From Escherichia coli (lineage in GTDB: Bacteria; Pseudomonadota; Gammaproteobacteria; Enterobacterales; Enterobacteriaceae): 64,000 nt of DNA. Location of the stretch: the NCBI RefSeq assembly GCF_016903815.1, contig NZ_CP069974.1; one strand, written 5' to 3'. Under the pieces are notes generated by a model, which was given only the letters and a program-made list of their open reading frames with translations, did not search any database and had not been told where the DNA came from. Shown piece after piece: positions 4,810-60,136 of the stretch (within the stretch, counting starts at the first letter, position 1; each line of letters opens with the position of its first letter). The position numbers and the translations under genes were made by a program.

Positions 4810-5150
4810 TTTCTGCCCTCCTCTGCCGGAATAAATTCCACCTTCAGGAAGCGATCGCCGGGAACGGCGCTCACCCGTGCCGGGACCTGATCAATGCCGA
4901 GGCGCTGGCAGAGCACACCGTTCTGGTCAAAGTAAATACGGCTGTCCAGCGCTTTCTGCATCTCCGGGATACTGCCCTGCACGAGGATAATTTTGCTCTC
5001 CAGTGTGGGCGGCGTCTGGCGTTTCATCCAGGCCACCTGCGCCGGATCATCGCCATTGATGAAATACAGCGTCTGGTTAAAAGGAACATACTGCAGCGGA
5101 TTCATCACTTCACCCTGACGGGCAAACACCCGCCCTTCGTTATCCCGGAT
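4806..5150 (-). pseudogene. traW: traW 3' fragment (C-terminal ~100 codons), N-terminal part deleted
   Basis: IRDNEGRVFARQGEVMNPLQYVPFNQTLYFINGDDPAQVAWMKRQTPPTLESKIILVQGSIPEMQKALDSRIYFDQNGV... matches the TraW C-terminus; the upstream part of ORF 4806-5384 is out-of-frame traC sequence. Confidence 0.7.
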
Positions 5151-9383: not shown

Positions 9384-10803
9384 CCCCGCCCTGCGGGTTC
9401 TTGTCTCCGGACATAAACTGCTGCGGATTCAGATTGCCCAGCTGCTTCAGCATCTGGTCGGTGTTAAAACCGTTCAGGTGGCTTTCTGCCGAGGGAGGAT
9501 TCGGCACAGGGCTTTCCGGGTTACCCTCTTCCGCTGTACTCTGTGACTGCTCCAGCGCCATTTCCTCCACGGTTTTCAGCTGGAAGCCGTCCTGGAACAC
9601 CACTGTCACTTCGTTGCCCGCACCAATCGGTATCACCGGGTGATACTGTTCGGCACGTTTGATGTAGTAGTCACTGAGCGTCTGTGCGGCTTTCGATGCG
9701 CCGCCACCGATACCCATTTTAAGGACATCGCCGGCCCCGTAAGCGGCTGTGGCACCCAGCCCGACAGCCGGCTGGGAGGCGCGCTCCATTCCCTGACCGA
9801 TACCGTCAACAAATCCCGCGCCCCATGCCCAGCCGAGGATTTTGCCGTTACGCATCACCACTTCGCCCTTGATACCGTTTTTACCCCGGAAGCTGACATG
9901 CCCCTTAATCGGCATATCAATGGTTTTGCCATTCTTCAGGCAGCTGATATTACGGGTGCGAACAATAGCACGTTCACTGGAGACATCCCCCCAGGCTTCC
10001 AGCCCCACAAAACATCCCGTTGCGTCATACGTCTTGCTGTTCGGCATTTCCACCAGACCGGTGATACGCAGCTGCATCGGCACCGTGGATTCATTACCGG
10101 TGACTGAGGCATTGGCATCCGCCCCTTCAATCAGCATGGCTTTCGCAAAACTTCCTGACGGAATGTACGGCAGCGATGGTCCCTGTTTTCCCTCATTACG
10201 GGTAAACACCTTACGCTGTATCCGGTTAGGCACCGGCACAGACTGGTACATCACCTGTGGTGGTGGCGTGACACCATTCCCGGGATAAAACGCCGTCGGC
10301 GGTGGAACAGCAACGCTGCCCTGCGGCGGGAAGGATACGGGGGTGTTTCCCGGCTGTGGTTCGCCTTCCGGCCCGGGCGGTGAGGCTGGCGTCTGCGGTA
10401 CAGGCTCACCGGTCGCCGTGACGGGATTAGCACCCAGGGCTTTTACCTGCTCTGCCAGGGCGGCATTGTCCTGTCCCAGTTTTTCAATACGACGCTGGTC
10501 ATCACCGCGCTGTTTGTTCAGGACATCCAGTTCACGACGGATTTCCTCATACTGCTTCTGCATCTGCGCTGCCGTCACCTGCATCTCTGTGGTGGCATGC
10601 TGACGCACCTTGTCATCAAAGGTCGTATCCACCACACCGGTCATATCCGGCACAGGCTCCTGTTCAGCCACGGTTTCCCCGTTACCGGACATGTCCACAT
10701 CAGACAGATACAGTGCCCCACCAATCGCGGAGGCTGTACCGACAACCACAATCCCCAGCCACAGGTACTGCTTGCGTTTCACAATGGTGTTGATACTGGC
10801 CAT
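9352..10803 (-). CDS. traB: TraB (VirB10-like)
   Basis: Pro-rich middle region and conserved C-terminal domain; matches F TraB. Confidence 0.85.
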   Translation of the reverse strand: MASINTIVKRKQYLWLGIVVVGTASAIGGALYLSDVDMSGNGETVAEQEPVPDMTGVVDTTFDDKVRQHATTEMQVTAAQMQKQYEEIRRELDVLNKQRGDDQRRIEKLGQDNAALAEQVKALGANPVTATGEPVPQTPASPPGPEGEPQPGNTPVSFPPQGSVAVPPPTAFYPGNGVTPPPQVMYQSVPVPNRIQRKVFTRNEGKQGPSLPYIPSGSFAKAMLIEGADANASVTGNESTVPMQLRITGLVEMPNSKTYDATGCFVGLEAWGDVSSERAIVRTRNISCLKNGKTIDMPIKGHVSFRGKNGIKGEVVMRNGKILGWAWGAGFVDGIGQGMERASQPAVGLGATAAYGAGDVLKMGIGGGASKAAQTLSDYYIKRAEQYHPVIPIGAGNEVTVVFQDGFQLKTVEEMALEQSQSTAEEGNPESPVPNPPSAESHLNGFNTDQMLKQLGNLNPQQFMSGDKNPQGGDAGKEGGNGG

Positions 10804-33815: not shown

Positions 33816-34046
33816 TCAGTTAAAAGCGCGTTTCAGTTCGAGTGTGCGGAGCACCTGCCCGAAGGCCGTGTTTTTCATGGCGGGGATGTGTACACCACGC
33901 CCCCGGTGAAAACTCCGGGCAATGTGTCGCCCGAAGGCTTTCAGCACGGGGTCAATTTCCGGCGCGGGGATGTCTTCGCGTCTGAAACGGGGATGACGGC
34001 GGGGCTTTACAGCCGCTGCGGAAGGTGAAACAATACTTACTGTCAT
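33816..34046 (-). CDS. small hypothetical leading-region protein (76 aa)
   Basis: ORF downstream (minus strand) of repeat copy 3; no motif recognised. Confidence 0.35.
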   Translation of the reverse strand: MTVSIVSPSAAAVKPRRHPRFRREDIPAPEIDPVLKAFGRHIARSFHRGRGVHIPAMKNTAFGQVLRTLELKRAFN

Positions 34047-34284
34047 AATTTAGCCTCTTATGACGTTAATTAATGAAACCGTAAAGACTGTTCGTGCAGT
34101 CTCTGCGGTGTGGATTAAGCAGGTCCCTGACCTGCTTTTTTCATATCTGCGTCTGACGTTCTCCGGTGTTTTCCTCCTTCTGTTCCTGCGTTCTCATTAC
34201 CTGCCAGCCGGATGACTGACAGAACACATAAATGCGTATTGCCGGAGCCTGAAATAAATCCTGATTTTTAAAGAACATCACCCG

Positions 34285-34848: not shown

Positions 34849-37233
34849 GTGCGACAGGAAGTCGCTTAACGTATTGTTTTACATTGATAAAACCAGCTAT
34901 CCCATTAGCTGTAGCCTACCGGGACAGGCGTTGCCGGCAACGGCGGGGTCTGAAGCTCCCGGGACAACGAGAGCCGGGCGTCAGCCCGGGTAATGCCCCG
35001 TGAGGGGCTTTACCTTGCTGCAAGCATCATGCGGCAGGAGAGCAAGGCTGGTCAGAAGGGTTAACACATGTGAACTGTTGATAAACACCGTTATCGGCAA
35101 CAGGCCAAAGATGCTGACAGGCCTGAACCAAAAGGTACGGGGTCCGGTTGCTACCTCGCGCACAGGGAGCACATGGGCGCAGAGACCCCCGGTGAAGAGA
35201 CAGAACCCGCCCTGACCCTCTGTATGTTAAGCGGAACCTGGTAAACCCGTATCGCTGCCTCACAGGCAGGTGAACCGCAAGGAACACTGTTAGCGGTGCG
35301 GGCATAGGAGGACGGAAAAAGCGAATGCCCGGCTGTAATAACCGGGATACGGGGCAGGTTCCCCGACGCGAAAGCGGGCAGACTTCCGTCTGGTCTTTAA
35401 TTGCATGAAAAGCTGTAAAGCAGTCAAAAGGATATCAGCGAGATGAATACACACATCAGTGTGTCCACGATACCCCACCCGACAGGCTGGCACACCATAA
35501 ACTGGAAAGCATGCCATGCCCGGGTGCGAAAGCTACAGTTACGGATTGCAAAGGCAACCCGACAGCAACAATGGCGGCAGGTCAGAGAACTACAGCGCAT
35601 CCTCACCCGCTCATTCTCCGGCAAAGCCGTGGCTGTCAGGCGTGTAACTGAAAATACCGGTAAAAGGACACCCGGTATTGACGGAAAAATATGGCACACA
35701 CCGAAGGAGAAATGGGAAGGAATATGCAGCCTGAATCTGTGTGGTTACAGGCCACAGCCACTACGGCGAATACATATCCCAAAATCAAACGGCAAAACGC
35801 GACCGCTGGGCATACCCACAATGAGGGACCGGGCCATGCAGGCACTGTGGCTGCTGGCTCTGGAACCCGTATCCGAGACCACTGCTGACCATAACAGCTA
35901 TGGTTTCAGACCAATGCGCAGCACGCATGACGCCATTGAGTCCATTTTTCTGCGGATGAGCCAGAAAGTATCGCCCAAATGGATACTGGAGGGCGATATT
36001 AAAGGGTGCTTCGATAACATCAGCCATGACTGGCTGCTTTCCCATATTCCGATGGACAGGAGACTGCTTAAAAAATGGTTGAAAGCAGGTTACATGGAAA
36101 GAGGCGTGTTTAACCATACGAACAGCGGGACACCGCAGGAAGGCATCATATCCCCTGTTCTCGCCAACATGGCTCTGGACGGACTGGAGAAGGAACTGAT
36201 GCAAACGTTCAGGAAAAGTGGTTATCACAGTGCAAAGCACCAGGTGAATTATGTGAGATATGCTGATGATTTCATCTGTTCAGGCAGCTCCCGTGAATTG
36301 CTGGAAAATGAGGTCAGACCACTGATTGCAGCTTTCATGCGCGAACGAGGGCTGGAACTGTCGGAAGAAAAAACAGCGATCACACATATAGATAAAGGCT
36401 TCGACTTTTTAGGGCAGAACGTCAGGAAGTACAACGGTAAAATGCTGATTAAACCGTCGAAGAAAAACCTGAAGAACTTCCTCTGTAAAGTCAGAGAAAT
36501 AATTAAACGCAATCCGACGCTCCCGGCATGGAAACTGATAGGCCAGCTAAACCCGGTGATCCGGGGATGGGCTACCTATCACCGACACGTCGTGGCGAAA
36601 GAAACATTTAATTATGTCGACACCCAAATCTGGCGAGCTATATGGCGATGGTGTGTAAGACGGCATCCCCGGAAAGGATTGCGGTGGATCGCCGGACGAT
36701 ACTTCTCCTTTGAAGGCAGGCGCTGGATCTTTAAAGCCATAACCCCGGAAGGGAAAATTCTGACACTCTTCCGGGCAATGGAAACACCGATAAAGCGCCA
36801 TATAAAAATCAAAGGCGAAGCAACACCATACACCCCCGGAATGGAAATCTACTTTGAACGTCGTCTGGATCTAATCTGGAAAGGCAAATCAAAGAAGATG
36901 AAGACAGTAGTTCAACTCTGGAAGAGGCAGGGGAAACACTGTCCGCAGTGCGGACAACTCATAACCAACCAGACCGGATGGAATATACATCACCGGATCA
37001 GGAAAGTTATGGGCGGCAGTGACGAACTGACCAATCTCGAGTTGTTACATCCGAACTGCCACCGACAGTTACACAGCAGGGAAGCCGGTGCTCACCGAAA
37101 GCACTTATAAAGGCTTGAGCGGAGTGCGGGGAAACTCGCACGCTCCGTTCTTAGGGGGCGGCGGCGCAGCAATGTGCCGCTGCTACCCGACCCGGCAGAC
37201 AGAACAACACTGCAGTAGTCAGAATCAGAGCAG
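34849..37233 (+). mobile_element. group II intron copy 3
   Basis: Identical to copies 1 and 2 except a single substitution in the IEP. Confidence 0.75.
35443..37110 (+). CDS. group II intron-encoded RT/maturase/HNH (copy 3, Gly to Glu substitution in RT motif)
   Basis: GTPQEGIISP instead of GTPQGGIISP (gga to gaa); otherwise identical to copies 1 and 2. Confidence 0.9.
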   Translation: MNTHISVSTIPHPTGWHTINWKACHARVRKLQLRIAKATRQQQWRQVRELQRILTRSFSGKAVAVRRVTENTGKRTPGIDGKIWHTPKEKWEGICSLNLCGYRPQPLRRIHIPKSNGKTRPLGIPTMRDRAMQALWLLALEPVSETTADHNSYGFRPMRSTHDAIESIFLRMSQKVSPKWILEGDIKGCFDNISHDWLLSHIPMDRRLLKKWLKAGYMERGVFNHTNSGTPQEGIISPVLANMALDGLEKELMQTFRKSGYHSAKHQVNYVRYADDFICSGSSRELLENEVRPLIAAFMRERGLELSEEKTAITHIDKGFDFLGQNVRKYNGKMLIKPSKKNLKNFLCKVREIIKRNPTLPAWKLIGQLNPVIRGWATYHRHVVAKETFNYVDTQIWRAIWRWCVRRHPRKGLRWIAGRYFSFEGRRWIFKAITPEGKILTLFRAMETPIKRHIKIKGEATPYTPGMEIYFERRLDLIWKGKSKKMKTVVQLWKRQGKHCPQCGQLITNQTGWNIHHRIRKVMGGSDELTNLELLHPNCHRQLHSREAGAHRKHL

Positions 37234-45724: not shown

Positions 45725-46779
<1,055 letters not shown>

Positions 46780-46839
46780 CTAAATAAAAAAGAGTCAATA
46801 AGCAGGGATAACTTTGTGAAAAAACAGCTTCTTCTGAGG

Positions 46840-47045
46840 GCAATCTGTCACAGGGTTAAGGGCAATTTGTCACAGACAGGACTGTCATTTGAGGGTAATT
46901 TGTCACACTGAAAGGGCAATTTGTCACAACACCTTCTCTAGAACCAGCATGGATAAAGGCCTACAAGGCGCTCTAAAAAAGAAGATCTAAAAACTATAAA
47001 AAAAATAATTATAAAAATATCCCCGTGGATAAGTGGATAACCCCA
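46840..47045. other. ori2 (oriS) of RepFIA: four iterons, AT-rich stretch and two DnaA boxes
   Basis: Four direct repeats (GAGGGCAATCTGTCACAGG etc.) at 46840-46930, AT-rich region, GTGGATAAGTGGATAAC DnaA-box pair near 47023-47040. Confidence 0.8.
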
Positions 47046-47510: not shown

Positions 47511-48317
47511 TCAGGATAATTGTTTCAGCATCGCAACCGCATCAGACTCCGGCATCGCAAACTGCACCCGGTGCCGGGCAGCCACATCCAGCGCAAAAAC
47601 CTTCGTGTAGACTTCCGTTGAACTGATGGACTTATGTCCCATCAGGCTTTGCAGAACTTTCAGCGGTATACCGGCATACAGCATGTGCATCGCATAGGAA
47701 TGGCGGAACGTATGTGGTGTGACCGGAACAGAGAACGTCACACCGTCAGCAGCAGCGGCGGCAACCGCCTCCCCAATCCAGGTCCTGACCGTTCTGTCCG
47801 TCACTTCCCAGATCCGCGCTTTCTCTGTCCTTCCTGTGCGACGGTTACGCCGCTCCATGGGTATTTTCAGTGTTGCCACCATCGTCTGCAGCTGGCTGAC
47901 GTACCAGGAGTCAGAGAGCGGAACCAGCCGGTGAGTCTGCTGACCGGCGGGCATTCTCCCCGCCGTCCTGGCAGCTTTTTCGGTCCGTTGTTTCAGGGTC
48001 GCAAGCTGCACAAACGGATACGGAGGCGCAAGCGAAAAATCCCCCCGCGTCAGCGCCAGTGCTTCATTAATGCGTGCTCCGGTGTTCCACAGTGTGGCCA
48101 GCAGCATCTTGCGGTGCAGATCCGGGACGTAATGGAGCAGGGCACTCACTTCCGGAGCCAGCAGATATTTTGGCAGTTCATCATGGACCATCGACATCTG
48201 GCGAAGTGCCAGAGCTGCCGGATAATCAATGGCAACAGGCAGCGATGCAGGCTGCCCGGCAGAATACACTGCCGGTACCATGACTGCAGACTGGCTGTGT
48301 ATAACGGAGCCTGACAT
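47511..48317 (-). CDS. resD: ResD (D protein) tyrosine site-specific recombinase/resolvase
   Basis: 268 aa with conserved R...HxxR...Y integrase motifs (HTFRHSYAMHM, Y near C-terminus); adjacent to ccdB. Confidence 0.85.
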   Translation of the reverse strand: MSGSVIHSQSAVMVPAVYSAGQPASLPVAIDYPAALALRQMSMVHDELPKYLLAPEVSALLHYVPDLHRKMLLATLWNTGARINEALALTRGDFSLAPPYPFVQLATLKQRTEKAARTAGRMPAGQQTHRLVPLSDSWYVSQLQTMVATLKIPMERRNRRTGRTEKARIWEVTDRTVRTWIGEAVAAAAADGVTFSVPVTPHTFRHSYAMHMLYAGIPLKVLQSLMGHKSISSTEVYTKVFALDVAARHRVQFAMPESDAVAMLKQLS

Positions 48318-48843
<526 letters not shown>

Positions 48844-49234
48844 AGCACACCTCTTTTTGACATACTTCGGGTATACATATCAGTATATATTCTTATGCCG
48901 CAAAAATCAGCGCGCAAATACGCATACTGCTATCTGGCTTTTAGTAAGCCTTATGTATTTTACCTTTCGTTATGTTAACCAATAAAAATTAAAATCTGAC
49001 TTATAAAAACAAAGCGTAATTACCGCATTCCCGTTTCGTATGGATCCGACTTTATTTGAATAAACGACTTTCCGGAAGTGTACAACGCTGAGAAAATCAT
49101 CATATCGCTGTTTTCCGCCCCTGCACGGCGCATCACAGGTCAGGGAAATAACACAACATATAGTGTCATCAGCAGCTGAATCCGGCACCACATGTTGTGC
49201 TTACAGGAAGTGGCGTTGTGTGGGGGGGAGAGGA

Positions 49235-49355
49235 AGATCCGTAACTGCCGGAAACCGGATCTCAGAAGAGAAAAAGAAGAGTTGTTGCAAGATAAGCACA
49301 AAAAATGGTGGTTTGTTGAGATATGGTAATTATTGCTCAGTGGGCAAAATTCAGA
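49235..49355 (+). repeat. island repeat R copy 1 (GATCCG-N13-CGGATC hairpin, purine-rich tract, mini-ORF)
   Basis: AGATCCGtaactgccggaaacCGGATCT then CAGAAGAGAAAAAGAAGAG...ATGGTGGTTTGTTGA...ATTATTGCT...GCAAAATT; homologous to the copies at 51190 and 57888. Confidence 0.6.
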
Positions 49356-49476
49356 ACAGAGTTAGCCTGAAATTGCAAAAAACAGGCCAGAAAAACTTTT
49401 TTCAGCTCATTTTCATCAACCGGCCTTAAAGGCTGCTTCGGATTTCCTAAATACAGTTTTACATAAGGAACATCGT

Positions 49477-49674
49477 ATGACTGTATTTCTCATGGCCGTT
49501 TTCTATGGCCTCTTAAAAACTGGCTCTCTCATTGCCCTACTTGTTGATGCCTATAAAGGCTGGACCTTGTTCTGGAAGAACTATGATCGACTCCCCCATA
49601 TCTACCGTTCGCAATGGCGATATCAGCGACGCTTCATTCTCAAAAGAATCTGGAAACGCATCAGAACCGGCTAA
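49477..49674 (+). CDS. small hydrophobic peptide (65 aa) with basic C-terminus
   Basis: MTVFLMAVFYGLLKTGSLIALLVDAYKGW... then RSQWRYQRRFILKRIWKRIRTG; downstream of repeat R1; coding status unverified. Confidence 0.3.
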   Translation: MTVFLMAVFYGLLKTGSLIALLVDAYKGWTLFWKNYDRLPHIYRSQWRYQRRFILKRIWKRIRTG

Positions 49675-49955
49675 GCCGGTTCTTCCAGCAGCATCCCCAA
49701 CCCGGCCAGCCAGCACAGACAGCACCAGGTGGTGAACACCATTCTGGTCTCGCCGGATTTCCACTTACGGATGGTGCGCTCGTCCACATCTAGCCGGTTG
49801 GCCAGCTGGATATCTGTGAGCGGGATCAGCGCCCGGACCACGCTGACTTCACTGGCTGAAGGTGCCATCCAGCTCTCGCCCGAGCACAGTGTTTCAGGGT
49901 TAAATTTCTCTAGTTCTATCAGCCCCTGAACCTGACGGGCATTTTCTGCCTTCAT
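49671..49955 (-). CDS. small HTH-containing protein with hydrophobic C-terminal tail
   Basis: LTDIQLANRLDVDERTIRKWKSGE HTH-like segment; C-terminal VFTTWCCLCWLAGLGMLL; 20 bp downstream of the DUF3800-like gene. Confidence 0.45.
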   Translation of the reverse strand: MKAENARQVQGLIELEKFNPETLCSGESWMAPSASEVSVVRALIPLTDIQLANRLDVDERTIRKWKSGETRMVFTTWCCLCWLAGLGMLLEEPA

Positions 49956-49974
49956 ATGCGGTTAACCTTTCTGA

Positions 49975-51108
49975 TCAGGATTGCGACACACTTTGTACAC
50001 GATGGGCAAGACGGCGCGTTTCTTCCACGGCCCTGAGTTCATTTGCTTTTTCTATCATTTCTGCGGTTGGTTCAGAAAGTTTTTCAAAAAACTCCTTAAA
50101 CCTCTTTGCAACTGACTGCAGAGAAACACTGTCAGTTCTCGCTGTTTTAAGATTGGTGTAGACGAGGCGGGAAAGGGGTTTGGTCAGTTCCTTCCGTTCC
50201 ATGTATCGTTTGAAGATCCAGAGATAAATATCAACCAGTTCCAGCCCGGCACTCATCGTTCCCGACTGGAAGACAAGCGGTTTTGCTGGCATGTTCTTCA
50301 TATCCATGACAGGCAAACCCGGCCCCAGTGCCCACGGCTGTTCGCGGATCTGGTAGTAAAACTCGTTCAACTCCCGCTGGGTGGTGTTGAACTGTGACTG
50401 CTGGTCAACAATGATATCTGCTTTCCGGTTCGGTGCCCCCAGACGAGAGCAGATCCCGTGCAAAACGGACTGAAAACCAATCATATTGGGCATGATCTGC
50501 AACTTTTCCTTATTGGTTTTGCAGTTGTACCCCAGCTCATCAAAGTTGACCATCGCCCAAGATAGGGCATCGGTAATGAGTTCAACTGAACGGGCATCAC
50601 CCAGAGAGTGAACGCGCTGAAGCAGCACTCCACAAACCTCACTGAATAATGAGCAAGAACGTTCATCATGAGCCTCAAGACGGGCACGCCACGCTTTTTC
50701 AGCCAGCTCATCATCAAACAGATTAGACAGATTCAGCAGCAGGGGATAGCGCAGAGGGGTCCAGTAGGCACTCCAGGGCACAACCGGATTCAGTCCCTGA
50801 TCAAACACCTGGTCGAAGAACGAAATAATGGCGTGATCGCGCTTAACCACCTGCCAGATATCAAACCGTATCCGGTGATTTTTCTGCAGGACCAGCAGCG
50901 TATCCACAACTTCTGAAAGGCGGTGCACGCCCAGTTCCGCAGCGTGCAGGCGCTCCACGCCCAGAGTTTTGCGTAATGCGGCAAGATCCGCTTCAGCAAC
51001 CTTATCTAGGTCAGCCTCTGAGGACAGTACTCCGTAGGAGAGGATTGGCTGGGTTTTGTCAAAAAGGTTTCGGCCAGTCTGGCCTGTTTCATCCACATAA
51101 AAGTGCAT
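49975..51108 (-). CDS. DUF3800-like protein (377 aa)
   Basis: N-terminus MHFYVDETGQTG resembles the y-DESG signature I associate with DUF3800; family assignment by recall. Confidence 0.45.
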   Translation of the reverse strand: MHFYVDETGQTGRNLFDKTQPILSYGVLSSEADLDKVAEADLAALRKTLGVERLHAAELGVHRLSEVVDTLLVLQKNHRIRFDIWQVVKRDHAIISFFDQVFDQGLNPVVPWSAYWTPLRYPLLLNLSNLFDDELAEKAWRARLEAHDERSCSLFSEVCGVLLQRVHSLGDARSVELITDALSWAMVNFDELGYNCKTNKEKLQIMPNMIGFQSVLHGICSRLGAPNRKADIIVDQQSQFNTTQRELNEFYYQIREQPWALGPGLPVMDMKNMPAKPLVFQSGTMSAGLELVDIYLWIFKRYMERKELTKPLSRLVYTNLKTARTDSVSLQSVAKRFKEFFEKLSEPTAEMIEKANELRAVEETRRLAHRVQSVSQS

Positions 51109-51189
51109 TCAGATATCCTTTTCAAGGCAGGAGGAAAAGAAACGGCATAATTCAAATCAATGTAAAACCTTCCTGTTGCCGGCTGCAAG

Positions 51190-51310
51190 TGATCCTCTTA
51201 AATGAGTTTTCGGATCTAAGGAAGAGAGAAGAGGGATTATTGTATGAATGGCACAAAAAGCGACGGATTGTTGCGGTGAATAGATTATTGCTTAGGAAGC
51301 AAAATTTATA
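51190..51310 (+). repeat. island repeat R copy 2
   Basis: GATCCtcttaaatgagttttcGGATC hairpin, AAGGAAGAGAGAAGAGGG tract, mini-ORF ATGAATGGCACAAAAAGCGACGGATTGTTGCGGTGA, ATTATTGCTTAGGAAGCAAAATTT. Confidence 0.6.
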
Positions 51311-51329
51311 GTAATTGATAACTCTAATG

Positions 51330-51360
51330 CAATTAAACAGCGACCCCATCAGGGGTCACC
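51330..51360 (-). terminator. putative terminator hairpin downstream of the 1039-aa gene
   Basis: GACCCC-ATCA-GGGGTC stem-loop at 51342-51357, followed on the minus strand by a T-rich stretch. Confidence 0.4.
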
Positions 51361-51370
51361 GTAATTTTGA

Positions 51371-54300
51371 TCAGCGATGTTCAAACCGCGCCACTGGAGT
51401 ATCAGTGATTTCCATCTCTATTTCCCAGAGCGTTTTCATCACACCTTCAAGTGGATCGTCGCTGCTGCGGTAGAAGGTATTGAAAAGGGTTCCATCCGGA
51501 TACCTGAACAGCCTGAGTTCACCAAAGGATTCAGCACTGACCATAAGCGAAAACTCCTGTTCGGAATTGAGGACAAGGTAAATAAGACAGTTATTGATCC
51601 TGAAGGGCAGAGAGCGGCTACCCCTGGCCGATACATCAACATGTATGCTAAACGCGTCATGCCTTTCCGGCTGATAGACCAGTTCCCTCAGTTCCTCGCT
51701 GAAGCGGGAACCATAGATCACCAGAATGTAGTTATTCTGATCAGCGGACCGTTGCGCGACTTCCATTAACAGCGTTTCGAGGTTATTGACCTCAATCGTT
51801 AATTTAGCCTGTGACTGCCACAGTACATAATGCAGTCTGCGGAGAATATTTCTGTTCACTTCTGATACCGAAGGGAAATCTCCGTAGTCAGTCTGATTAA
51901 GCTCTCTGGCAACATACTCTTTGGAAACACCAACAGGAATATATATCGCCAGCCAGTTGCGATCACATTCTGAATTTTGAGTAAACGTGAAGTATTTAAG
52001 CAGAACATCTTCAGACAATGCCCCAGGAAGTTCATTTGTAAGACGAGCATCAGTGTTTCTCAGTCGAGCCTGGTCTACTTCAGCAGCAACGATATCTGCC
52101 GTTTTACTACGACTGAATACATCTATGTATTTATCCAGAACATCATTAAAGAACACCACATTCGTTGCATAATCCGCTTCTGAAATGATATAACCTTCAT
52201 AGGGAACTGAAGGGTCTCGTTTCAGTCGTTTAAGAATAGAAATTATTCTGTCTTTACTGGAATAGGAAAACACCCCTCCAGCCAGGGCTTCATTAACACG
52301 CTGTGTAACCTGCTCCGCAGGCCTTGCGAGCTTTATAGCCAGCAAGGCAAACGCCCCGTAGAGACTCCCTAAATCTTCATATTCCCCTGTATACATACGC
52401 CCGGGAATGTAAGGCCTTTCATTATATGAGTTCATAACCTCAATGGTTTCTGATAACCCGCTGTACCAGCTTGTATTCGTATGCAGATTGCAGTGCTCAA
52501 TTCTCAGTATCATGTCAATGATATCGACAGAACGTCTGAATGCAGGCGTCAGCGTGTCATGTGTATCTCTATCTTCATATAATTCAGACATAATGAGATG
52601 ATTCACAAGATCGGCTAAGTCTATATTTTTTTGCGATTCAAAATGAGCAATAAGATACCCTGCCATTAACAACCGCAAATCGGATAAGGCATTTGCAAAC
52701 ATAATGGACAAAGCGGCATCTTTTTTATACTTGCTGCCCCTGAGTAACATATTCCACTGCGGTTCTGTCTCCTTCAGGGACAGATAATCCGGAGTCAGGA
52801 AGAAACTGTGCCAGCGGTACTCTTCCTCCCAGTAACGTGTAAACCGGCTCTGATTAAACCAGAGGCAGAGAACGTCGTGAGCATATCGCACGGAAGAGGC
52901 ATTATCGGCAACCACTGACGGAATAAGAAGCCTGGCGGTATTATGCAGATGATACATCAGGCGGCCAGTAGAATCTTCACTCCCGGGTTTGCCAGTGATC
53001 GTGGTCATACTCCAGCCTTCCCACAGTCCGATATACCCGCGGATAAGGGCCTGGTGAGTCAGCTCCTGGCTGGCCGAGAGGGGGCCCCCCAGTCCCGCTT
53101 TCCACTCGTTTAACACATGCCACACCCTGAAAAGCGAGAGTAAAAACTGTCTGAAATCGGTAAAACACGTGCTCTGTGTTTTTCTGTACACACGCAATGG
53201 AATGAGCATCGATTCACGGAAATATTCGCCTGAATATTCCGTTGATTTTACGGATTCACGAAAAAACTTTCTCAATTCATAATGGAATGAATCGCTGAAA
53301 GTATGGCTAAAACCTGATTCTTTTACTTCATCCAGATAATTTTTATCGACCTCGTAATTGTAACTTCTTTTGATAGAGGTATAGGTATCTGTTAATCGTT
53401 CAATCCCTGTTCTGAAGACGCTAATATTTTTATCGTTAAGCGCATCGTAAGCCTCACCAAAGAAATCAAAAGTAATATCATCCAGATCCCTTTTGTTCTC
53501 AGGGCGCCCTGTTACAATACAACGACGCAATAACCACCGCCACAATCCTGAAACAGGCTTGACATTTCTCGATGACAATAAAGTCAGTTCACCAGAACGA
53601 ACACCAAAGGAGGGCAGAATGATAATTTCCGCATCCTGCCCATCTACCGCCTCTAGCCTTCTCAGTAGGAATAAAAAAGGCCTTATATAAATATCAGTAA
53701 CAACATCACCTTTACTGATATTAGATTTAACATGAAGCATATCGTCTTTCTCAGAAATTGAGTAAGGCAGTATTTTAATATTACCGAGGTAATTTTGACC
53801 TACATGACCCCCCGGGTAACGCAGCCACGCCTGAATATATGCTTTTTGAATGTAGTCATCCACTATCTGAGATAAAAAAAACTTATTCATTAGTCGATCG
53901 CGTTTGCTCTCATCCAGGACATTCAGACTGGAGACGAAGAACCAGATAGACAGAATAATATTGAAAAGCATCCACACAAAAGCTGTTACGGCAAAAGAAG
54001 TATTAAGATATCCGTCACCTATAGATAACGTCATACCGCCCAGCACGACAAATGCAGCCAGTGAAAGACCACTCAGGCCCGCAAACATATATCCGGAATG
54101 AAGTTGATACGCGGACTGAATATGGATCCTTGCTGATTTCTTTTGAAATAAAACACTTATAAGCCCCACAACCAGCGGAAATACAATACCGATTATAGTC
54201 AACTGGCTACCCAGTAAATTAGACATCCAATCTGAAAGCTTGGTAATGCCCTTAAAATGCTGCACAGCGAAAGGTAGCAATACAGGGCGAAAATATTCGA

Positions 54301-54490
54301 CCACGCCAACAGCCCCGAAGGCTGCGGACCATAGAACCAGCATAGCCCGGACGTAATGGGTGGAGCAGGAAACAAGTATTCTCTCCACCGGGTTCCAGCG
54401 AAGTTTTTTGTAATCCCGGTTCGACTTCAGGCTCCGTCGGAGTTCAGCTCTCACCTGCCATGAGACACTTTTCAGAAGTTTTCCAAACAT
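51371..54490 (-). CDS. large membrane-anchored protein of unknown function (1039 aa, four N-terminal TM segments)
   Basis: Uninterrupted 3.1-kb ORF in an AT-rich island; four hydrophobic segments within the first ~200 aa, ~840-aa soluble C-terminal region with no recognisable catalytic motif. Confidence 0.7.
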   Translation of the reverse strand: MFGKLLKSVSWQVRAELRRSLKSNRDYKKLRWNPVERILVSCSTHYVRAMLVLWSAAFGAVGVVEYFRPVLLPFAVQHFKGITKLSDWMSNLLGSQLTIIGIVFPLVVGLISVLFQKKSARIHIQSAYQLHSGYMFAGLSGLSLAAFVVLGGMTLSIGDGYLNTSFAVTAFVWMLFNIILSIWFFVSSLNVLDESKRDRLMNKFFLSQIVDDYIQKAYIQAWLRYPGGHVGQNYLGNIKILPYSISEKDDMLHVKSNISKGDVVTDIYIRPFLFLLRRLEAVDGQDAEIIILPSFGVRSGELTLLSSRNVKPVSGLWRWLLRRCIVTGRPENKRDLDDITFDFFGEAYDALNDKNISVFRTGIERLTDTYTSIKRSYNYEVDKNYLDEVKESGFSHTFSDSFHYELRKFFRESVKSTEYSGEYFRESMLIPLRVYRKTQSTCFTDFRQFLLSLFRVWHVLNEWKAGLGGPLSASQELTHQALIRGYIGLWEGWSMTTITGKPGSEDSTGRLMYHLHNTARLLIPSVVADNASSVRYAHDVLCLWFNQSRFTRYWEEEYRWHSFFLTPDYLSLKETEPQWNMLLRGSKYKKDAALSIMFANALSDLRLLMAGYLIAHFESQKNIDLADLVNHLIMSELYEDRDTHDTLTPAFRRSVDIIDMILRIEHCNLHTNTSWYSGLSETIEVMNSYNERPYIPGRMYTGEYEDLGSLYGAFALLAIKLARPAEQVTQRVNEALAGGVFSYSSKDRIISILKRLKRDPSVPYEGYIISEADYATNVVFFNDVLDKYIDVFSRSKTADIVAAEVDQARLRNTDARLTNELPGALSEDVLLKYFTFTQNSECDRNWLAIYIPVGVSKEYVARELNQTDYGDFPSVSEVNRNILRRLHYVLWQSQAKLTIEVNNLETLLMEVAQRSADQNNYILVIYGSRFSEELRELVYQPERHDAFSIHVDVSARGSRSLPFRINNCLIYLVLNSEQEFSLMVSAESFGELRLFRYPDGTLFNTFYRSSDDPLEGVMKTLWEIEMEITDTPVARFEHR

Positions 54491-54796
54491 AGATATCCTG
54501 CGTATTACATAAGAAATTTTATGAATAATAAGCGGTAGGAACCTTTTTTTCTCTGGAAAATGTCACCCGATACCCTTCATACAGGCTTTGTCATCCTAAA
54601 ATCCGGTTTAACCTTTTTTCGGATCTCCGATAAAAAAGAAAGAAATAGAGATATGCATAAACATATGCCTGGCATCTACATATGCTACCGCTATACATAT
54701 GCCACACATCTGCCTATACTAAACATATGCACACACCCGGTGCTTTGAATATTCCGGATATGTTTCACATATCCATATGCTCGGGAGAGAAAGAAC

Positions 54797-55027
54797 ATGA
54801 GAACCGTATCGATATTTAAAAATGGCAACAACCGCGCCATCCGTCTGCCTCGTGATCTGGATTTTGAGGGGGTGAGCGAGCTCGAGATCGTCCGGGAAGG
54901 GGACAGCATCATCCTGCGCCCCGTCCGGCCAACCTGGGGATCATTCCTAGAGTACGAAAAAGCCGATCCAGATTTTATGGCGGAGCGCGAGGATGTTGTC
55001 AGCGACGAAGGGCGATTTAACCTGTGA
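54797..55027 (+). CDS. vapB: VapB/MvpA antitoxin (AbrB/SpoVT fold)
   Basis: 76 aa MRTVSIFKNGNNRAIRLPRDLDFEGVSELEIVREGDSIILRPV... matches VapB/MvpA-type antitoxins. Confidence 0.85.
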   Translation: MRTVSIFKNGNNRAIRLPRDLDFEGVSELEIVREGDSIILRPVRPTWGSFLEYEKADPDFMAEREDVVSDEGRFNL

Positions 55028-55440
55028 ACAAGACTTATATGCTTGATACCTGTATCTGCTCGTTCATCATGCGTGAACAGCCAGAAGCCGTCCTGAAGCG
55101 TCTGGAGCAGGCGGTGCTACGCGGCCACCGTATAGTGGTCTCGGCCATCACCTACTCTGAAATGCGCTTCGGGGCTACCGGCCCAAAGGCCTCACCACGT
55201 CACGTCCAACTGGTCGATGAATTCTGCGCCCGCCTCGATGCCATCCTGCCCTGGGATCGCGCCGCAGTAGACGCCACCACGAAGATTAAAGTGGCACTGC
55301 GGCTGGCCGGGACGCCGATCGGCCCGAACGACACGGCGATTGCCGGGCACGCCATCGCCGCCGGGGCGATACTGGTAACGAATAATACAAGAGAATTTGA
55401 GCGAGTGCCTGACCTGGTGCTGGAAGACTGGGTGAAGTAA
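55024..55440 (+). CDS. vapC: VapC/MvpT PIN-domain toxin (start GTG 55024 or ATG 55039)
   Basis: MLDTCICSFIMRE...VVSAITYSEMRFG...LVTNNTREFERVPDLVLEDW with PIN acidic residues; overlaps vapB stop. Confidence 0.85.
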   Translation: MNKTYMLDTCICSFIMREQPEAVLKRLEQAVLRGHRIVVSAITYSEMRFGATGPKASPRHVQLVDEFCARLDAILPWDRAAVDATTKIKVALRLAGTPIGPNDTAIAGHAIAAGAILVTNNTREFERVPDLVLEDWVK

Positions 55441-55601
55441 GACACTCTTTTCAAAGTCAGGAGATAAGGGCACCAAGAAACAGCCCGTATACGGGCTGTT
55501 TTAACAGATATCTACAGTAAGCGGTCCTAAACTGTAGGGTATCTTCGAAGATCAGACTATCAGGGAGCTAAAGCCTATCTTCCGGCGGCAAAAACAGTGG
55601 C

Positions 55602-57740
55602 TCAAGCGATACGGGCAACCGAGCTCTGGTTTGCTGCCGGTGGCAGGGCGATGAGCTTGTCACATTCCATAATCACGTACTCCGGGATGAGATCGAATCT
55701 GGACGGATCTAGTTGACAGATGAACTCATTTTCAATGTGGTACGTTTCGTTAACGAATTTTCGTATTACCGGATGGTCCTGATCCAGTTCCAGTAAACGG
55801 AATACCTGCAGTTTTTCATAGCCGTTACGACAGCGACGGTACAGGTTTTTTATTTCATCTGGGCTGCTGACGAGAGCCTGAAGTCGCGGGTAATCAAAAC
55901 TGTCCACATACTCCCGGATATCCCGCAAGGCCTGCTGAATTTTCTCAGGAGCCATTTTGGGATAGCCCGAGCCCGCAGCGGCAGGCTCGCGATAATCCAG
56001 CGGGGCGACGCGTCGATGGAATAGATTGGATAGAAGCTGATAAGCATCACCACGTTCGTCAACGATTTCAAAGTAGCGACGAAGATAGATGAGCTTAATG
56101 ATCTCCTCACAGTCTGCTGACGCGGTGATGGATTTGCAGATCTGCATGAATGTCATGATATCGCCGTCGTTAACAGGTAATTCTTCTATGACTCCAGCAG
56201 ACAGGCGCAGGCAGGAGGCGGTCACCTGATTACTGAACAACCTTCTGACTGACTTCAGCGTGTCAATCACAGGCTCCACGTCATGCGTCAGCATAAGTAC
56301 AGTCCGGTTCTTCAGGCATTCACCACTTGCACGTCTGAACAGCATTTCAAGAATGGCAAACTTCTTGTTTTTATCAAAAGAAGATATGGGATCATCAAGG
56401 ATAATCAGTCCCGGGTTTTTTGACAGGCATTCATACATGAATAACACAATCGCAAAGGCGTTCCGTTCTCCATAGCTGAGATGCTGGCTACCGCCGCTGA
56501 CGTACCCGTCAAAATCTATGTGTCGTAGCCTGAGTTTTCTCTGCTCTCCCTCGCCGGCTATATCCACCCTGTATTTATAGCCTGCATAAGTGAGGAAATT
56601 ATTGATGTTTGTTTTGTGCTGTGCGATCAGCCGGATCATGCTGTCCCGGTGCCGGTTAATTTTTCCCTGCAGCGGTCCGGCAAGGTTTATCAGGTCCATA
56701 AGGGCCGCGTTCAGTCTGTCGGTGATCCCCTGCATGAGTTCGGATTGCAGATCAGGGAAGAACTGCAGGTCAATCAACCTGGCAGTGAGCACCTCCCGAA
56801 CGTTCTGCTGTTCCTGCAGGCTGAAAACATTCAGGCCTCTCAGCGCAGTGAGTTTCTCTGTCAGCGTATCGGTCTGGCGTTTCAACGCCACTAGGTACTC
56901 GATATGTTCGGCTTCCGGACCGTTCTGAAGCATAGTAATGGCCAGAAGGCGTTCTCTGGCGCTCTCCGTCAGGTAATTACCGAGGTTTTCCACCAGTCTG
57001 ATGATAGCGGTCAGGTTTTTAATGGTGGATTTATCGTATTCCTCTCTGACTTGGCGAATTTGTGCTTCCTTTCCCGTGATATCACCGGTACAGAACGGAC
57101 AGCAGCCATCCGAAAGGGGCGAAAACTCGAGTCCCTTTGTCTGCCAGTCAATCCATTCCACGCGGCGTTCACTGCGGATGTAGGGTTGATAGTTCTCAAG
57201 ACCAGCCGGAATGTGGTGTATTTTATTTCCGCCTGACAGACCTCTCATGCCGGTTGAAGAACGTGAAATCCCGGAACTGGTTGATTTGAAAGCATTACTG
57301 AGTTCCTGTAGATGGTCTATCAGAGAGTTCAGCTCAGTGTGATCCGTGAAAACAGCCCGGATCTTTTGCGTCATTTCTTCTATTTCACGCTCTCTTTCCG
57401 CATGGGCTTGATTGCGGATAAGAATATTAAAGCTGTCACTGATGAGCTCGTCCGGTTGGAACGTAAACTGACTGACGTACTCCTCGTTGAAGCACATCAC
57501 GTCCCCAATCCCGTCAGCACCGATGACAATGGGCCCGGTGCTATCGGGGTTTTCTCCGCGCAGCCGGAAGGGCATCAGTGCCTGTAGTCCCTGAATGTCG
57601 TCCCGCGCCGCACAGCTTATGGCCCGTGACAGCGTACTTTTTCCAGTACCATTTGGCGCAAACTTAATGTTCAGTTTATCGGCAGTGAGGGTGATATGTG
57701 CTCGTACGATGTTATTGCAGTGGCGTATTTCAATGTCCAT
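55602..57740 (-). CDS. RloC/Rad50-like ABC ATPase with CxxC hook insert (candidate anticodon nuclease)
   Basis: Walker A APNGTGKST at the N-terminus, long coiled-coil-like insert with CCPFCTGD (CxxC), signature-like LSYGER, Walker B LIILDDP, C-terminal LRRYFEI...H region reminiscent of PrrC/RloC. Confidence 0.45.
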   Translation of the reverse strand: MDIEIRHCNNIVRAHITLTADKLNIKFAPNGTGKSTLSRAISCAARDDIQGLQALMPFRLRGENPDSTGPIVIGADGIGDVMCFNEEYVSQFTFQPDELISDSFNILIRNQAHAEREREIEEMTQKIRAVFTDHTELNSLIDHLQELSNAFKSTSSGISRSSTGMRGLSGGNKIHHIPAGLENYQPYIRSERRVEWIDWQTKGLEFSPLSDGCCPFCTGDITGKEAQIRQVREEYDKSTIKNLTAIIRLVENLGNYLTESARERLLAITMLQNGPEAEHIEYLVALKRQTDTLTEKLTALRGLNVFSLQEQQNVREVLTARLIDLQFFPDLQSELMQGITDRLNAALMDLINLAGPLQGKINRHRDSMIRLIAQHKTNINNFLTYAGYKYRVDIAGEGEQRKLRLRHIDFDGYVSGGSQHLSYGERNAFAIVLFMYECLSKNPGLIILDDPISSFDKNKKFAILEMLFRRASGECLKNRTVLMLTHDVEPVIDTLKSVRRLFSNQVTASCLRLSAGVIEELPVNDGDIMTFMQICKSITASADCEEIIKLIYLRRYFEIVDERGDAYQLLSNLFHRRVAPLDYREPAAAGSGYPKMAPEKIQQALRDIREYVDSFDYPRLQALVSSPDEIKNLYRRCRNGYEKLQVFRLLELDQDHPVIRKFVNETYHIENEFICQLDPSRFDLIPEYVIMECDKLIALPPAANQSSVARIA

Positions 57741-57887
57741 TTATCTGTCCTTTGCCAGTTATTCCGGGGGGATTCATATCCTGCCGCAAAATGTGCCCGC
57801 ATGCTGTGATGCAGATACATAATACATTTCGTTTATACCATTGCTTACACCTCTCCGAGATGTTCATATCAGAAACAAAGATTAGGT

Positions 57888-58020
57888 CGATCCGACTTTT
57901 ACTTTTTTCGGATCTCTGGAGAGGGGAAGAAGGATTTGTGCTGATGATGCAATACTAATGATATATTTTGAACTTAATTGCATTATTGCTTATCTGGCAT
58001 TAATAACTGAAATACTTTGC
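57888..58020 (+). repeat. island repeat R copy 3
   Basis: GATCCGActtttacttttttCGGATC hairpin, CTGGAGAGGGGAAGAAGG tract, mini-ORF ATGATGCAATACTAA, ATTATTGCTTATCTGGCA...GCATAATTA. Confidence 0.6.
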
Positions 58021-58204: not shown

Positions 58205-59200
58205 ATGGCGACCACAGTAATAGCTGCCTTTAACGAATTTATGAAAGATACCGTGAATCTCAAAAAGGCAGATACCGATGACGCGCGTGCAAGTCGCGAC
58301 TGGCTTATCGGTAAGATGAATGATTTTGAGAAGGACGATAAATTTCCGGTGAGTTTTCCAGCGATCCATATTGCCTTTGGCTCCTTTGCCAGAAGAACCA
58401 AAATCCGTCCGCTTGATGATATCGATCTGATGTTTGGCTTAACCGGGCAAGGTGCCACCTATACCATCCTGAGTGACCGGATAACTGTAACCTCCTCCGG
58501 AGAGGGGTCACGTCTGCACAGTTACCGCCATTCCGGAGCTGACACCGTCTGCTCCGTCAGAATTCTGAATGCCTTTAAAAACCGCCTGCAGGACATTGCC
58601 CAGTACGCCCAGGCTGATATCAGGCGTAACCAGGAAGCTGTCACGCTGAAACTGGTCAGCAAGGACTGGAATTTTGACATCGTCCCCTGCTTTATTACCA
58701 GCGAAGATGCCTTTGGACGGACTTACTACCTGATCCCCGATGGCAACGGCCACTGGAAGTTTACCGACCCCCGTAAAGACAGGGACAGAGTCACTACTAT
58801 CAATGTGCAGAATAACGGCAATGTGCTCAATGTCATCAGAGCAGTCAAATACTGGCAGCGGCGACCGACGATGCCATCCATGAGTTCCTACCTGCTGGAA
58901 ACGCTGATTCTGGACTATTACGCTGGCAGGACATCCTGCTCATCGTTTGTTGACATGGAGCTGGAAGCGCTTTTCCGCCACCTTGGTCAATCCGTGCGGT
59001 ACTCTGTCAACGATCCCAAAGGCATACAGGGTGATATCAACTCACTTTCAGCCGAGGCACGTAAGGCGATATCGGACAGATGTTATCTCGATGCGCAAAA
59101 GGTATCGGAGGCGAGATGGTTTGAAAATAATAAAGAGTATGAAAAATCCATCAATAAATGGCGCGATGTGTTCGGGCCATTCTTTCCTGTTTACGGGTGA
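58205..59200 (+). CDS. CD-NTase/SMODS-like nucleotidyltransferase (CBASS-type cyclase candidate)
   Basis: GS-x11-DID nucleotidyltransferase motif FGSFARRTKIRPLDDIDLMF and downstream third Asp KDWNFDIVPCF; 331 aa. Confidence 0.6.
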   Translation: MATTVIAAFNEFMKDTVNLKKADTDDARASRDWLIGKMNDFEKDDKFPVSFPAIHIAFGSFARRTKIRPLDDIDLMFGLTGQGATYTILSDRITVTSSGEGSRLHSYRHSGADTVCSVRILNAFKNRLQDIAQYAQADIRRNQEAVTLKLVSKDWNFDIVPCFITSEDAFGRTYYLIPDGNGHWKFTDPRKDRDRVTTINVQNNGNVLNVIRAVKYWQRRPTMPSMSSYLLETLILDYYAGRTSCSSFVDMELEALFRHLGQSVRYSVNDPKGIQGDINSLSAEARKAISDRCYLDAQKVSEARWFENNKEYEKSINKWRDVFGPFFPVYG

Positions 59201-59203
59201 ATC

Positions 59204-60136
59204 ATGAATGCCATTTACACAAACCAGTCGACCAGAGAAAACATGGATTTACTGTATGCGCAGGCCCGTGTCTACGACAGGGTAAAAAACTGGAACAGAC
59301 TGAATTTTCTCTTCAGCATCATCGTACCGCTCCTGCTTTCTTTCGTTACCGTATACAACCGGAGCCGGGAATTTGTCGATTCAGAGTTGTTGTCTTCGCT
59401 GTTGGGGTTATATGGACTCCTGGTGCTTACCTTTAACATTGTTATCAGTGGACACATCTCGGCTCTGCGCAGGAAGGCAGCCTCAATCCAGGAAATGTAC
59501 GACTGCCGGGTACTTGGCATCCGGCGTAATGAACTGAAGGTGGAGGAGATCCCACGGGATGACATCATCCGGGAAGCTGCATATTTTAGAGACAGCCCGG
59601 AAAAAGCACGAAAGCGATTTGGCGAAGAGGGGTGGTACGTCAGTAAGGTGTATGACGCGCCGCAGGCCGTAATGGCGCTCCTTTGCCACGGAAAAAATCT
59701 CGGCTGGGACAAATCGCTCAGGGAGGTTCTGCACGTATTTTATCTTTCCGCTTTTATTGTCTCGCCTGTCGCGATGCTTGTTTACGGCATCGTCATGAAA
59801 TCCGGGCTGAATGAGATCCTCTTCTATGTGGTGTTCACACTGCCGGTCATCCGCTATTTCTTGCTTCAGTTTCTGGATAATCGCAGCAGTATGAAAAGAA
59901 GCGAGAAGCTGAAAAAGTACGTTGAGAAGGAATTATCCGGCATAAGGGTGTCCGGAAGGGCAGAAGAAGAGCAACTGGCTTATACGCTCCGGAATATCCA
60001 AGATGAGATGTTTACCTACCGGGCCTCATGTCCGCCCGTACCCAACGGTATTCAGCTGATAATGAAGCCCAAAAATGAACGAATTTATGTTGATTACTTT
60101 GAAACAAATCTGAAGGAGCTGCACCTTCAGAAGTAA
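59204..60136 (+). CDS. 4-TM effector-like membrane protein (2TM-loop-2TM) coupled to the nucleotidyltransferase
   Basis: Starts 4 bp after the NTase stop; hydrophobic segments around residues 30-50, 60-85, 198-222 and 228-248. Confidence 0.55.
   Translation: MNAIYTNQSTRENMDLLYAQARVYDRVKNWNRLNFLFSIIVPLLLSFVTVYNRSREFVDSELLSSLLGLYGLLVLTFNIVISGHISALRRKAASIQEMYDCRVLGIRRNELKVEEIPRDDIIREAAYFRDSPEKARKRFGEEGWYVSKVYDAPQAVMALLCHGKNLGWDKSLREVLHVFYLSAFIVSPVAMLVYGIVMKSGLNEILFYVVFTLPVIRYFLLQFLDNRSSMKRSEKLKKYVEKELSGIRVSGRAEEEQLAYTLRNIQDEMFTYRASCPPVPNGIQLIMKPKNERIYVDYFETNLKELHLQK

Follow-up and report, generated by a model that had tools for sequence, protein, structure and literature searches.

Putative rfsF-family recombination sites of ResD at the borders of defence-gene cassettes on an Escherichia coli IncF plasmid

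In this report, we will focus on a repeat of an IncF plasmid of Escherichia coli and on the recombinase that is encoded next to it. The repeat lies in a 64-kb stretch of contig NZ_CP069974.1 (hereafter the window, in whose numbering feature coordinates are given), which belongs to a plasmid of the ST131 pEC958/pEK499 type. An initial annotation had noticed this repeat and had suggested for it either a regulatory role or a role as a recombination site at the borders of gene modules. The comparison of sequences makes it very probable that the repeats belong to the rfsF family of recombination sites and are targets of the plasmid's own tyrosine recombinase, ResD, and that four such sites border three gene cassettes. 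More tentatively, and with somewhat less than even confidence, we propose that ResD and rfsF could form a cassette platform, in the manner of integrons and of the pdif modules of Acinetobacter, which would collect and swap anti-phage genes on F-like and related Enterobacterales plasmids. Each cassette would then be equipped with a strong and a weak arm and with a conserved accessory flank, exchange would take place at a fixed border without homology of the centres, and those that have no annotation (the 1039-aa gene, the DUF3800 gene with a korC-like gene and a 65-aa reading frame, the DUF4238 gene, and HEPN with a 257-aa gene) would be new defence genes.

The evidence is comparative throughout. 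It comes from 16 loci examined in detail, many of them from related plasmids, and the contexts were drawn from PLSDB and from complete E. coli genomes. The comparison loci in other plasmids are labelled L002 to L017, L006 being plasmid F and L017 the record NZ_OR345926.1. Sites are read on the - strand, towards resD. A 9.3-kb region of the window is found at 100% identity in many PLSDB records, and in an identical plasmid the annotated order on the - strand is that of a type I restriction-modification gene (hsdR), IS1, a cyclic oligonucleotide-based antiphage signalling system (CBASS, on the opposite strand), an AAA ATPase, vapBC (on the opposite strand), the 1039-aa protein, DUF3800, a small helix-turn-helix (HTH) protein with a convergent 65-aa reading frame, ccdA, ccdB, a 'site-specific integrase', repE and sopAB. 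The gene listed as an integrase is resD.

The repeat and its rfsF core

The repeat can be recovered without any knowledge of the window. A profile built solely from six copies of Klebsiella, Enterobacter, Cronobacter, Citrobacter and E. coli IncFIA plasmids matches the window at 51201-51311 (E 4e-23), 49235-49368 (2e-21) and 57889-58008 (2e-8), with a weak fourth match that is limited to the core at 54601-54631 (E 7e-5), and at no other place in the 64 kb. The three homologous copies in one orientation that had been announced are thus real (about 49235-49365, 51190-51316 and 57888-58016 in an alignment over about 140 bp), but their pairwise identity is just 51-53% over this length. The pattern GATCCG-N(10-16)-CGGAT is matched 7 times where 0.3 are expected, and AGATCCGAAAA is found exactly at 51207, 54616 and 57905, in all three cases on the - strand. 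The repeat is present in 1869 PLSDB plasmids.

At the heart of each site is a dif-like core of 28 bp, made of two inverted arms of 11 bp (outer 7 bp AGATCCG and CGGATCT) around a centre of 6 bp. Because inverted arms flank a short centre, and because GATC belongs to the sequence of the arms, the core resembles a hairpin with two GATC, which is how it had first been described. The inverted arms do exist, with two GATC 22 bp apart, but the core at 54600 carries a single GATC, and a hairpin nature of the single strand is not borne out: the cores fold weakly (-2.4 to -5.7 kcal/mol, with loops of 12-14 nt) and one out of four does better than shuffled sequences. The complete site reads, in this order, flank, pyrimidine tract of 18-22 nt, left arm AGATCCG(A/G)WWW, centre and right arm. 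The purine-rich tract of the initial annotation is this pyrimidine tract seen from the other strand, and it is kept in 11 copies from 9 plasmids, as is the conserved segment, which corresponds to a ATTATTGC-N7-GCAAAAT palindrome. The mini-ORF differs in position, length and sequence across the same 11 copies and one of them has none, so that we attribute these reading frames to chance. The two partial copies reported near 49043 and 54620 proved genuine; the former is a lone arm at 49042-49052, found also in F, and the latter is the core of site 2 at 54599-54626. This core also modifies the borders that had been drawn: the repeats do stand at module borders, but the second module is not a single one, since the core at 54600 divides the 1039-aa gene from the ATPase and vapBC.

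The assignment to rfsF comes first of all from plasmid F, which carries GAGATCCGAAAACCCCAAGTTACGGATCTTCCTCTCCC (also given as GAGATCCGAAAACCCCAAGTTACGGATCT) between pifC and ccdA. The window is the same as F from GTTACGGATCT onward (also stated as from GTTACGGATCTTCCTCTCCC), and its positions 48601-49281 align to F with 94% identity, the alignment running on for about 20 nt after the left arm of site 4 and stopping within the pyrimidine tract. Site 4 also occupies the genomic position of the F rfsF, upstream of oriV-1 and ccdAB. The F-like RepFIA region of pEC958 was described as beginning at this very point and opening with two rfsF sites, targets of ResD (PMC4398462), of which the second is probably the lone arm at 49042-49052. 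Xu et al. (2021) identified a '28-bp fusion site', AGATCCGNAANNNNNNNNTTNCGGATCT, with the rfsF of F, demonstrated reversible fusion at rfsF between a Klebsiella virulence plasmid and F, and explicitly left open why some plasmids have two or three such sites (PMC8299605). We also observed in F (L006) a second, hybrid rfsF-like site at 5091-5118, AGATCCGAAAA aaggta AAACCGGAACT, in addition to rfsF at 9923-9950, and these two sites bracket the pair formed by a 96-aa gene and a TIR-like PDC-S35 gene, together with pifC-pifA.

The four sites of the window are in one orientation, upstream of ccdAB-resD (Table 1). In sites 1-3 the left arm, AGATCCGAAAA, is perfect and the right arm deviates, while site 4 has the perfect right arm GTTACGGATCT and departs from the consensus in its inner left arm (GGTTT). 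The same polarity is seen among the arrays examined: in those that extend to the resD backbone, the right arm of the site closest to resD is consensus, the left arm mostly being so too, while the internal sites have a perfect left arm and a degenerate right arm. The recombinase gene lies 1-10 kb downstream of the window sites, and ResD homologues that are 86-94% identical are encoded downstream of the sites in 6 other loci. Against the NCBIfam integron integrase model, ResD scores 60 bits for a cut-off of 265, so it is not an IntI.

Table 1. Features of the window related to the putative rfsF-family sites, their cassettes and the resD backbone
Feature	Position	Strand	Description
Core site 1	57888..57915	-	left arm AGATCCGAAAA, centre AAGTAA, right arm AAGTCGGATCG (non-consensus)
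Core site 2	54599..54626	-	AGATCCGAAAA AAGGTT AAACCGGATTT; degenerate right arm, one GATC
Core site 3	51190..51217	-	AGATCCGAAAA CTCATT TAAGAGGATCA; degenerate right arm
Core site 4	49235..49262	-	AGATCCGGTTT CCGGCA GTTACGGATCT; terminal, nearest ccdAB-resD; right arm and flank orthologous to F rfsF
Lone arm	49042..49052	+	GGATCCGACTT; about 190 bp towards ccdA; 10/11 bases match site 1 right arm; conserved in F
Type-I flank, site 1	57916..58016	-	pyrimidine tract, GCAATAAT at -74, TTAATGC-N7-GCAATAAT palindrome
Second flank type, site 2	54627..54790	-	pyrimidine tract and about 7 (A/C)ATATGC repeats, partly at 17-bp spacing; between core 2 and divergent vapB
Type-I flank, site 3	51218..51316	-	GCAATAAT at -74, GCAACAAT at -57, ACAATAAT at -26
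Type-I flank, site 4	49263..49363	-	found by alignment and six-copy profile
Cassette A	54610..57898	-	PDC-S06 candidate-defence AAA ATPase (55602-57740, -; PADLOC E 3e-286) and vapBC (54797-55440, +)
Cassette B	51201..54609	-	single 1039-aa protein (51371-54490, -)
Cassette C	49246..51200	-	DUF3800 (49975-51108, -), korC-like Xre-type HTH (49671-49955, -), 65-aa membrane/basic peptide (49477-49674, +, convergent)
Type I CBASS	58205..60136	+	cyclase and 4TM effector; far side of site 1; left neighbour of the pEC-81009 empty site
ccdA	48625-48843		upstream of resD
ccdB	48318-48623		upstream of resD
resD	47511..48317	-	Xer-type tyrosine recombinase, 100% identical to F ResD; downstream of ccdA, ccdB

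Breakpoints of homology at the cores

The sister plasmid pEC-81009 allows one to compare an occupied and an empty state of the locus. It has the same backbone (hsdR, IS1, CBASS, ccdAB, resD, repE, sopAB), with one site between CBASS and ccdA, which reads AGATCCGAAAA AAGTAA GTTACGGATCT: its left arm and centre are those of site 1, and its right arm is that of site 4. The two plasmids are identical up to the AAGTAA of site 1. Since pEC-81009 joins this AAGTAA to the right arm of site 4, the 8.65 kb of the window (57898..49246) are located exactly between a centre and a right arm, and they are filled by the three cassettes A, B and C where pEC-81009 has a single intact site. This empty site, with its left half as in site 1 and its right half like that of site 4, fits AGATCCGNAANNNNNNNNTTNCGGATCT completely.

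Switches of the same kind are found at the other sites. The window, L013, L014 and L015 have vapBC, the repeats and AGATCCGAAAA AAGGTT in common (97-99.7%), and they part at the next base, beyond which the window has the 1039-aa gene, L013 the 96-aa and TIR-like PDC-S35 pair as in F, L014 a DUF4238 gene, and L015 the backbone right arm and then a resD homologue. The place after the left half of site 2 is also taken by a HEPN cassette in L010 and L012, and by DUF3800 in L011. L004 and L009 are 99% identical through AGATCCGAAAA AAGGTA and then differ, L009 going on with a 1039-aa cassette. In L002, a flank of the 49235 type switches to sequence of the 51190 type at the core, and several plasmids have their breakpoints at query position 3700, which is window 51201.

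Entire cassettes recur as well. L013 and L014 carry cassette A at 99.6% identity; the match opens at window 57898, where the right arm has its first base, and closes at about 54600, and the DNA beyond either end is unrelated. Cassette B is matched from core to core by L007 (90%, window 54613..51207) and by L009 (74%). In spread samples of matching plasmids from PLSDB and of complete E. coli genomes, whose match ends we mapped onto the cores, many of these ends fall inside the four cores, which make up 1.2% of the query in one sample; as the sampled records are related, this pile-up does not amount to a formal test. The recombination or cassette-boundary site that the initial annotation had put forward is thereby upheld, its hairpin being the rfsF core of ResD and homology between plasmids breaking within the cores. 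Judging from these alignments, the crossover would occur inside the core, at the border between the centre and the right arm.

These base-exact borders are relevant for several other explanations. Ordinary homologous recombination, or the duplication of an intergenic region bearing a promoter, would involve no site-specific step and could draw on flanks that are alike enough to be recognized as repeats; yet copies that are 51-53% identical in the window are too distant for RecA-type exchange, and the breakpoints stand at the centre/right-arm border rather than being dispersed over the 100-bp flank, so that we consider this very unlikely. Even less credit can be given to a small mobile repeat that spreads by itself, akin to repetitive extragenic palindromes or to miniature inverted-repeat transposable elements. 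The repeat is indeed short, intergenic and found in those 1869 plasmids, but its orientation never varies, a resD-like gene lies downstream of it in most of the loci examined, neither terminal inverted repeats bordering the unit as a whole nor target duplications were seen in the copies examined, and there is no further copy in the 64-kb window.

A more serious alternative, though one that we still regard as unlikely, is that the sites are scars of the fusion of whole plasmids at rfsF, followed by deletions that left foreign rfsF-adjacent pieces side by side, the cassettes not being mobile units themselves. Fusion and resolution at rfsF have been demonstrated experimentally (PMC8299605), the authors who studied IncI1 and IncR plasmids inferred switches of gene sets and the entry of foreign DNA at rfsF (PMC8004404, PMC9412624), and the lack of cassette circles among the records found would also suit this explanation. 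Against it, cassettes A and B recur with both ends in cores and with neighbours that differ on both sides; this means two site-specific crossovers per event, and not random deletion.

Flanks, regulation and a possible mechanism

The DNA beside the left arm is of several types. The type-I flank, of about 100 bp, accompanies sites 1, 3 and 4 of the window and eight copies of other plasmids. Two elements are fixed in these 11 copies, with positions counted from the core: the motif GCAAYAAT, which occurs at -74, -57 and -26, and an inverted ATTTTGC near -89, which makes a TTGC-N7-GCAA palindrome, and such motifs at fixed positions look like protein-binding sites. Site 2 has a second type of flank (54627..54790), which probably doubles as the promoter/operator region of vapBC; its 17-bp repeats were not reported as an array by TRF. 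A third type, made of ATATCAGATAT repeats, precedes cassette A in L013 and L014. The Rfam search of the whole window at gathering scores gave no match at any copy of the repeat.

These features could be read in quite another way, namely as a shared transcriptional control element to which either the korC-like HTH protein or ResD, as a repressor, would bind, and which may respond to Dam methylation. This element would co-regulate the modules, and the recombination signal would be incidental. All four sites are located 80-150 bp upstream of genes of the - strand, the palindrome and the repeated GCAAYAAT resemble protein-binding sites, the korC-like HTH is encoded beside a type-I site in 6 loci, and the D protein of F is reportedly also a transcriptional repressor (Lane et al., 1986). 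The common Dam-sensitive operator of the initial annotation nevertheless finds no support: a scan for sigma-70 consensus promoters gave none in any copy, the second GATC is absent at site 2 and at degenerate sites elsewhere, the mini-ORF is unconserved, and type-I flanks occur without a korC-like gene in the stretch fetched in L004, L007, L009 and L016. Moreover, such control leaves the base-exact breakpoints unexplained. As an explanation of the whole pattern, we therefore find it rather improbable, but it may still hold as a second function of the flank: the korC-like HTH is a candidate binder of the type-I flank, and the TTGC-N7-GCAA palindrome may, for instance, be its operator.

For recombination at these sites, the following mechanism can be envisaged. 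ResD would occupy the arms as dimers, and strand exchange would take place where the centre meets them. A cassette would be gained or swapped as an excised circle, or through two site-specific crossovers once two plasmids have fused at rfsF; it would bring a weak right arm of its own at the 5' end and, at the 3' end, its flank together with a strong left arm. The four unlike centres and the degenerate right arms would keep ResD from deleting the array, while the flank would serve as an accessory or architectural region, or as an operator. Exchange of a single pair of strands followed by replication is known for Xer recombination at cer and in CTXphi. The differing centres at the two ends, and the fact that the centre is kept with the left arm, suggest the same here, with exchange at a fixed border.

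Several observations weigh against the assignment of the repeats to rfsF-family targets of ResD and against this mechanism. None of the four window cores fits the strict pattern AGATCCGNAANNNNNNNNTTNCGGATCT fully, each having one departing arm, which keeps its outer CGGAT intact at sites 2 and 4 only. The four centres (AAGTAA, AAGGTT, CTCATT, CCGGCA) are all different, and in three comparisons of occupied and empty sites the centre stays with the left arm, which is unexpected under simple integration with identical centres. No excised cassette circle was found, the one circular cassette-like record that turned up not being joined at a core. The functional rfsF of F lacks most of the type-I flank, so that this flank is not required for the action of ResD there. 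Finally, recombination by ResD has been demonstrated in the literature for the F site, and we infer it for the internal hybrid sites.

Cargo, related systems and other features of the window

In the loci examined, the cargo comprises CBASS, PDC-S06, Tmn, PifA, TIR-like PDC-S35 and several unannotated genes. No match to the 1039-aa protein of cassette B was found in Pfam, PADLOC, NCBIfam, PHROGs or PDB. Its gene, which forms a single-gene cassette between cores in three backgrounds, the window, L007 (90%) and L009 (74%), is a candidate for a new defence gene. The module of cassette C also follows other sites in L002, L008 and L011. Its small HTH gene (49671-49955), annotated as 'korC' in some records and adjoining a type-I site in 6 loci, encodes a protein with no Pfam domain and with weak Xre-type matches in PDB. 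This protein and two homologues recurrently give a weak match to the NCBIfam VC1465/XafT 'Xer recombination activation factor' model (E 2e-4 to 1e-3, 19-21 bits for a cut-off of 70), a resemblance that is a lead only, far below threshold, yet intriguing beside Xer-like sites with a weak arm. The 65-aa peptide has a hydrophobic N-terminus and a very basic C-terminus, and its gene shares 4 bp with the 3' end of the HTH gene. The two genes occur together beside a type-I site in the window, L002, L003, L005 and L008, and L011 has the HTH gene plus an annotated small reading frame where the peptide would sit. The two may be a toxin/repressor pair.

A divergent vapBC is often found at the cassette end, beside the left arm, and L010 (1598-7104) has two copies of it, one beside the AAA ATPase gene at the edge of the locus and one after Tmn. 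Cassettes ended by vapBC recall the toxin-antitoxin (TA) cassettes that stabilize the arrays of chromosomal integrons. We considered the 4863-bp circular pE2022-6 (L017, NZ_OR345926.1), deposited as circular without a replicon and equal to L010 1866-6728 (Tmn and vapB), as an excised Tmn-vapBC cassette, and rejected it: its joint is in register inside vapC and not in a core. As this joint falls within the two vapC copies of an L010-type array, it points to homologous recombination or to an assembly artefact, and not to ResD.

Several elements of this picture are already established, namely rfsF, ResD, the fusion of plasmids at the 28-bp site, and crs/Rsd. Among the papers available, our literature searches found neither a plasmid defence hotspot at resD nor an account in which hybrid rfsF sites, arrayed and with a conserved flank, delimit defence cassettes. 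With the rfsF/ResD system of F, the window sites share the arms AGATCCG...CGGATCT, the 28-bp layout, the position upstream of ccdAB-resD and an identical recombinase, and the right half of site 4 is orthologous. The known site is, however, single and nearly palindromic, and serves dimer resolution and plasmid fusion (PMC8299605), whereas here four hybrid sites in direct repeat, each with one consensus and one deviant arm and three of them with the flank of about 100 bp, bound cassettes.

The flank invites a comparison with the Xer sites cer and psi, in which, as here, a conserved accessory stretch of about 100-180 bp adjoins just one side of a 28-bp core, but neither a similarity to the accessory regions of cer/psi nor an ARG box or ArcA box was recognized (by eye only). 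The crs site has imperfect direct repeats of 17 bp in a run, then an rfsF-like core, and vagCD/rsd as its neighbour. Site 2 may resemble it, with its imperfect repeats partly spaced by 17 bp, its rfsF-like core and the adjacent vapBC (vagCD), and L015 has the same left half directly before the gene of a ResD homologue (94% identical). The difference is that site 2 of the window is internal to an array and followed by a cassette instead of a recombinase gene. The role of crs/Rsd (RsdB) in multimer resolution is that of Salmonella virulence plasmids (Krause & Guiney 1991, as cited in PMC5065971).

In Acinetobacter, pdif sites for XerC/XerD bound resistance and TA modules (PMC9455709). There, as here, plasmid gene modules are found between 28-bp dif-like sites in many contexts, with TA genes as common cargo, but here the recombinase is the plasmid-encoded ResD and not the host XerCD, the sites are direct instead of alternating in inverted orientation, the cargo is mainly anti-phage, and a conserved flank travels with each module. 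Integron arrays are also alike in that promoter-poor cassettes lie beside the gene of a tyrosine recombinase, each with its own site at its 3' end, and that an intact 'primary' site stands at one end; TA modules occur within the arrays, and defence genes are cargo of chromosomal integrons (10.1101/2024.07.02.601686). They differ in that the cores here are double-stranded and dif-like, and not folded single-stranded attC sites, in that ResD is not an IntI, and in that the array is upstream of the recombinase operon and co-oriented with it.

If true, the cassette platform would explain how the variable phage-exclusion region beside ccdAB-resD, which includes pif, ibfA, CBASS, Tmn and others, is assembled and exchanged in F-like, IncI1, IncR and Klebsiella virulence plasmids. 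It would also answer the question of the Klebsiella literature as to why some plasmids have several '28-bp fusion sites', and it provides a sequence rule for cassette borders, that of a left arm AGATCCG with a pyrimidine tract before it. Several unannotated cassettes of one or two genes are flagged in this way as candidate anti-phage systems. The proposal is testable and useful for finding new defence genes.

Parts of the region are also matched at 80 chromosomal places in complete E. coli genomes, for example ccdAB with the right flank of site 4 in NZ_CP123009.1, and vapBC in NZ_LR134222.1. In the rest of the window, iteron families lie on both sides of repE (45729-45963 and 46824-46907); one set is direct, its repeats being about 28 nt long, and another is inverted. 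Three copies of a group II intron (17437-19735, 29222-31520 and 34893-37191, all on the + strand) have equal Rfam scores and matching spacing (RF02012 and RF00029), and a further domain match is found at 25869-25989 (-). Rfam also gives a match to AS-pc01, the antisense RNA to pHK01_035, at 34041-34140 with 98.9 bits.

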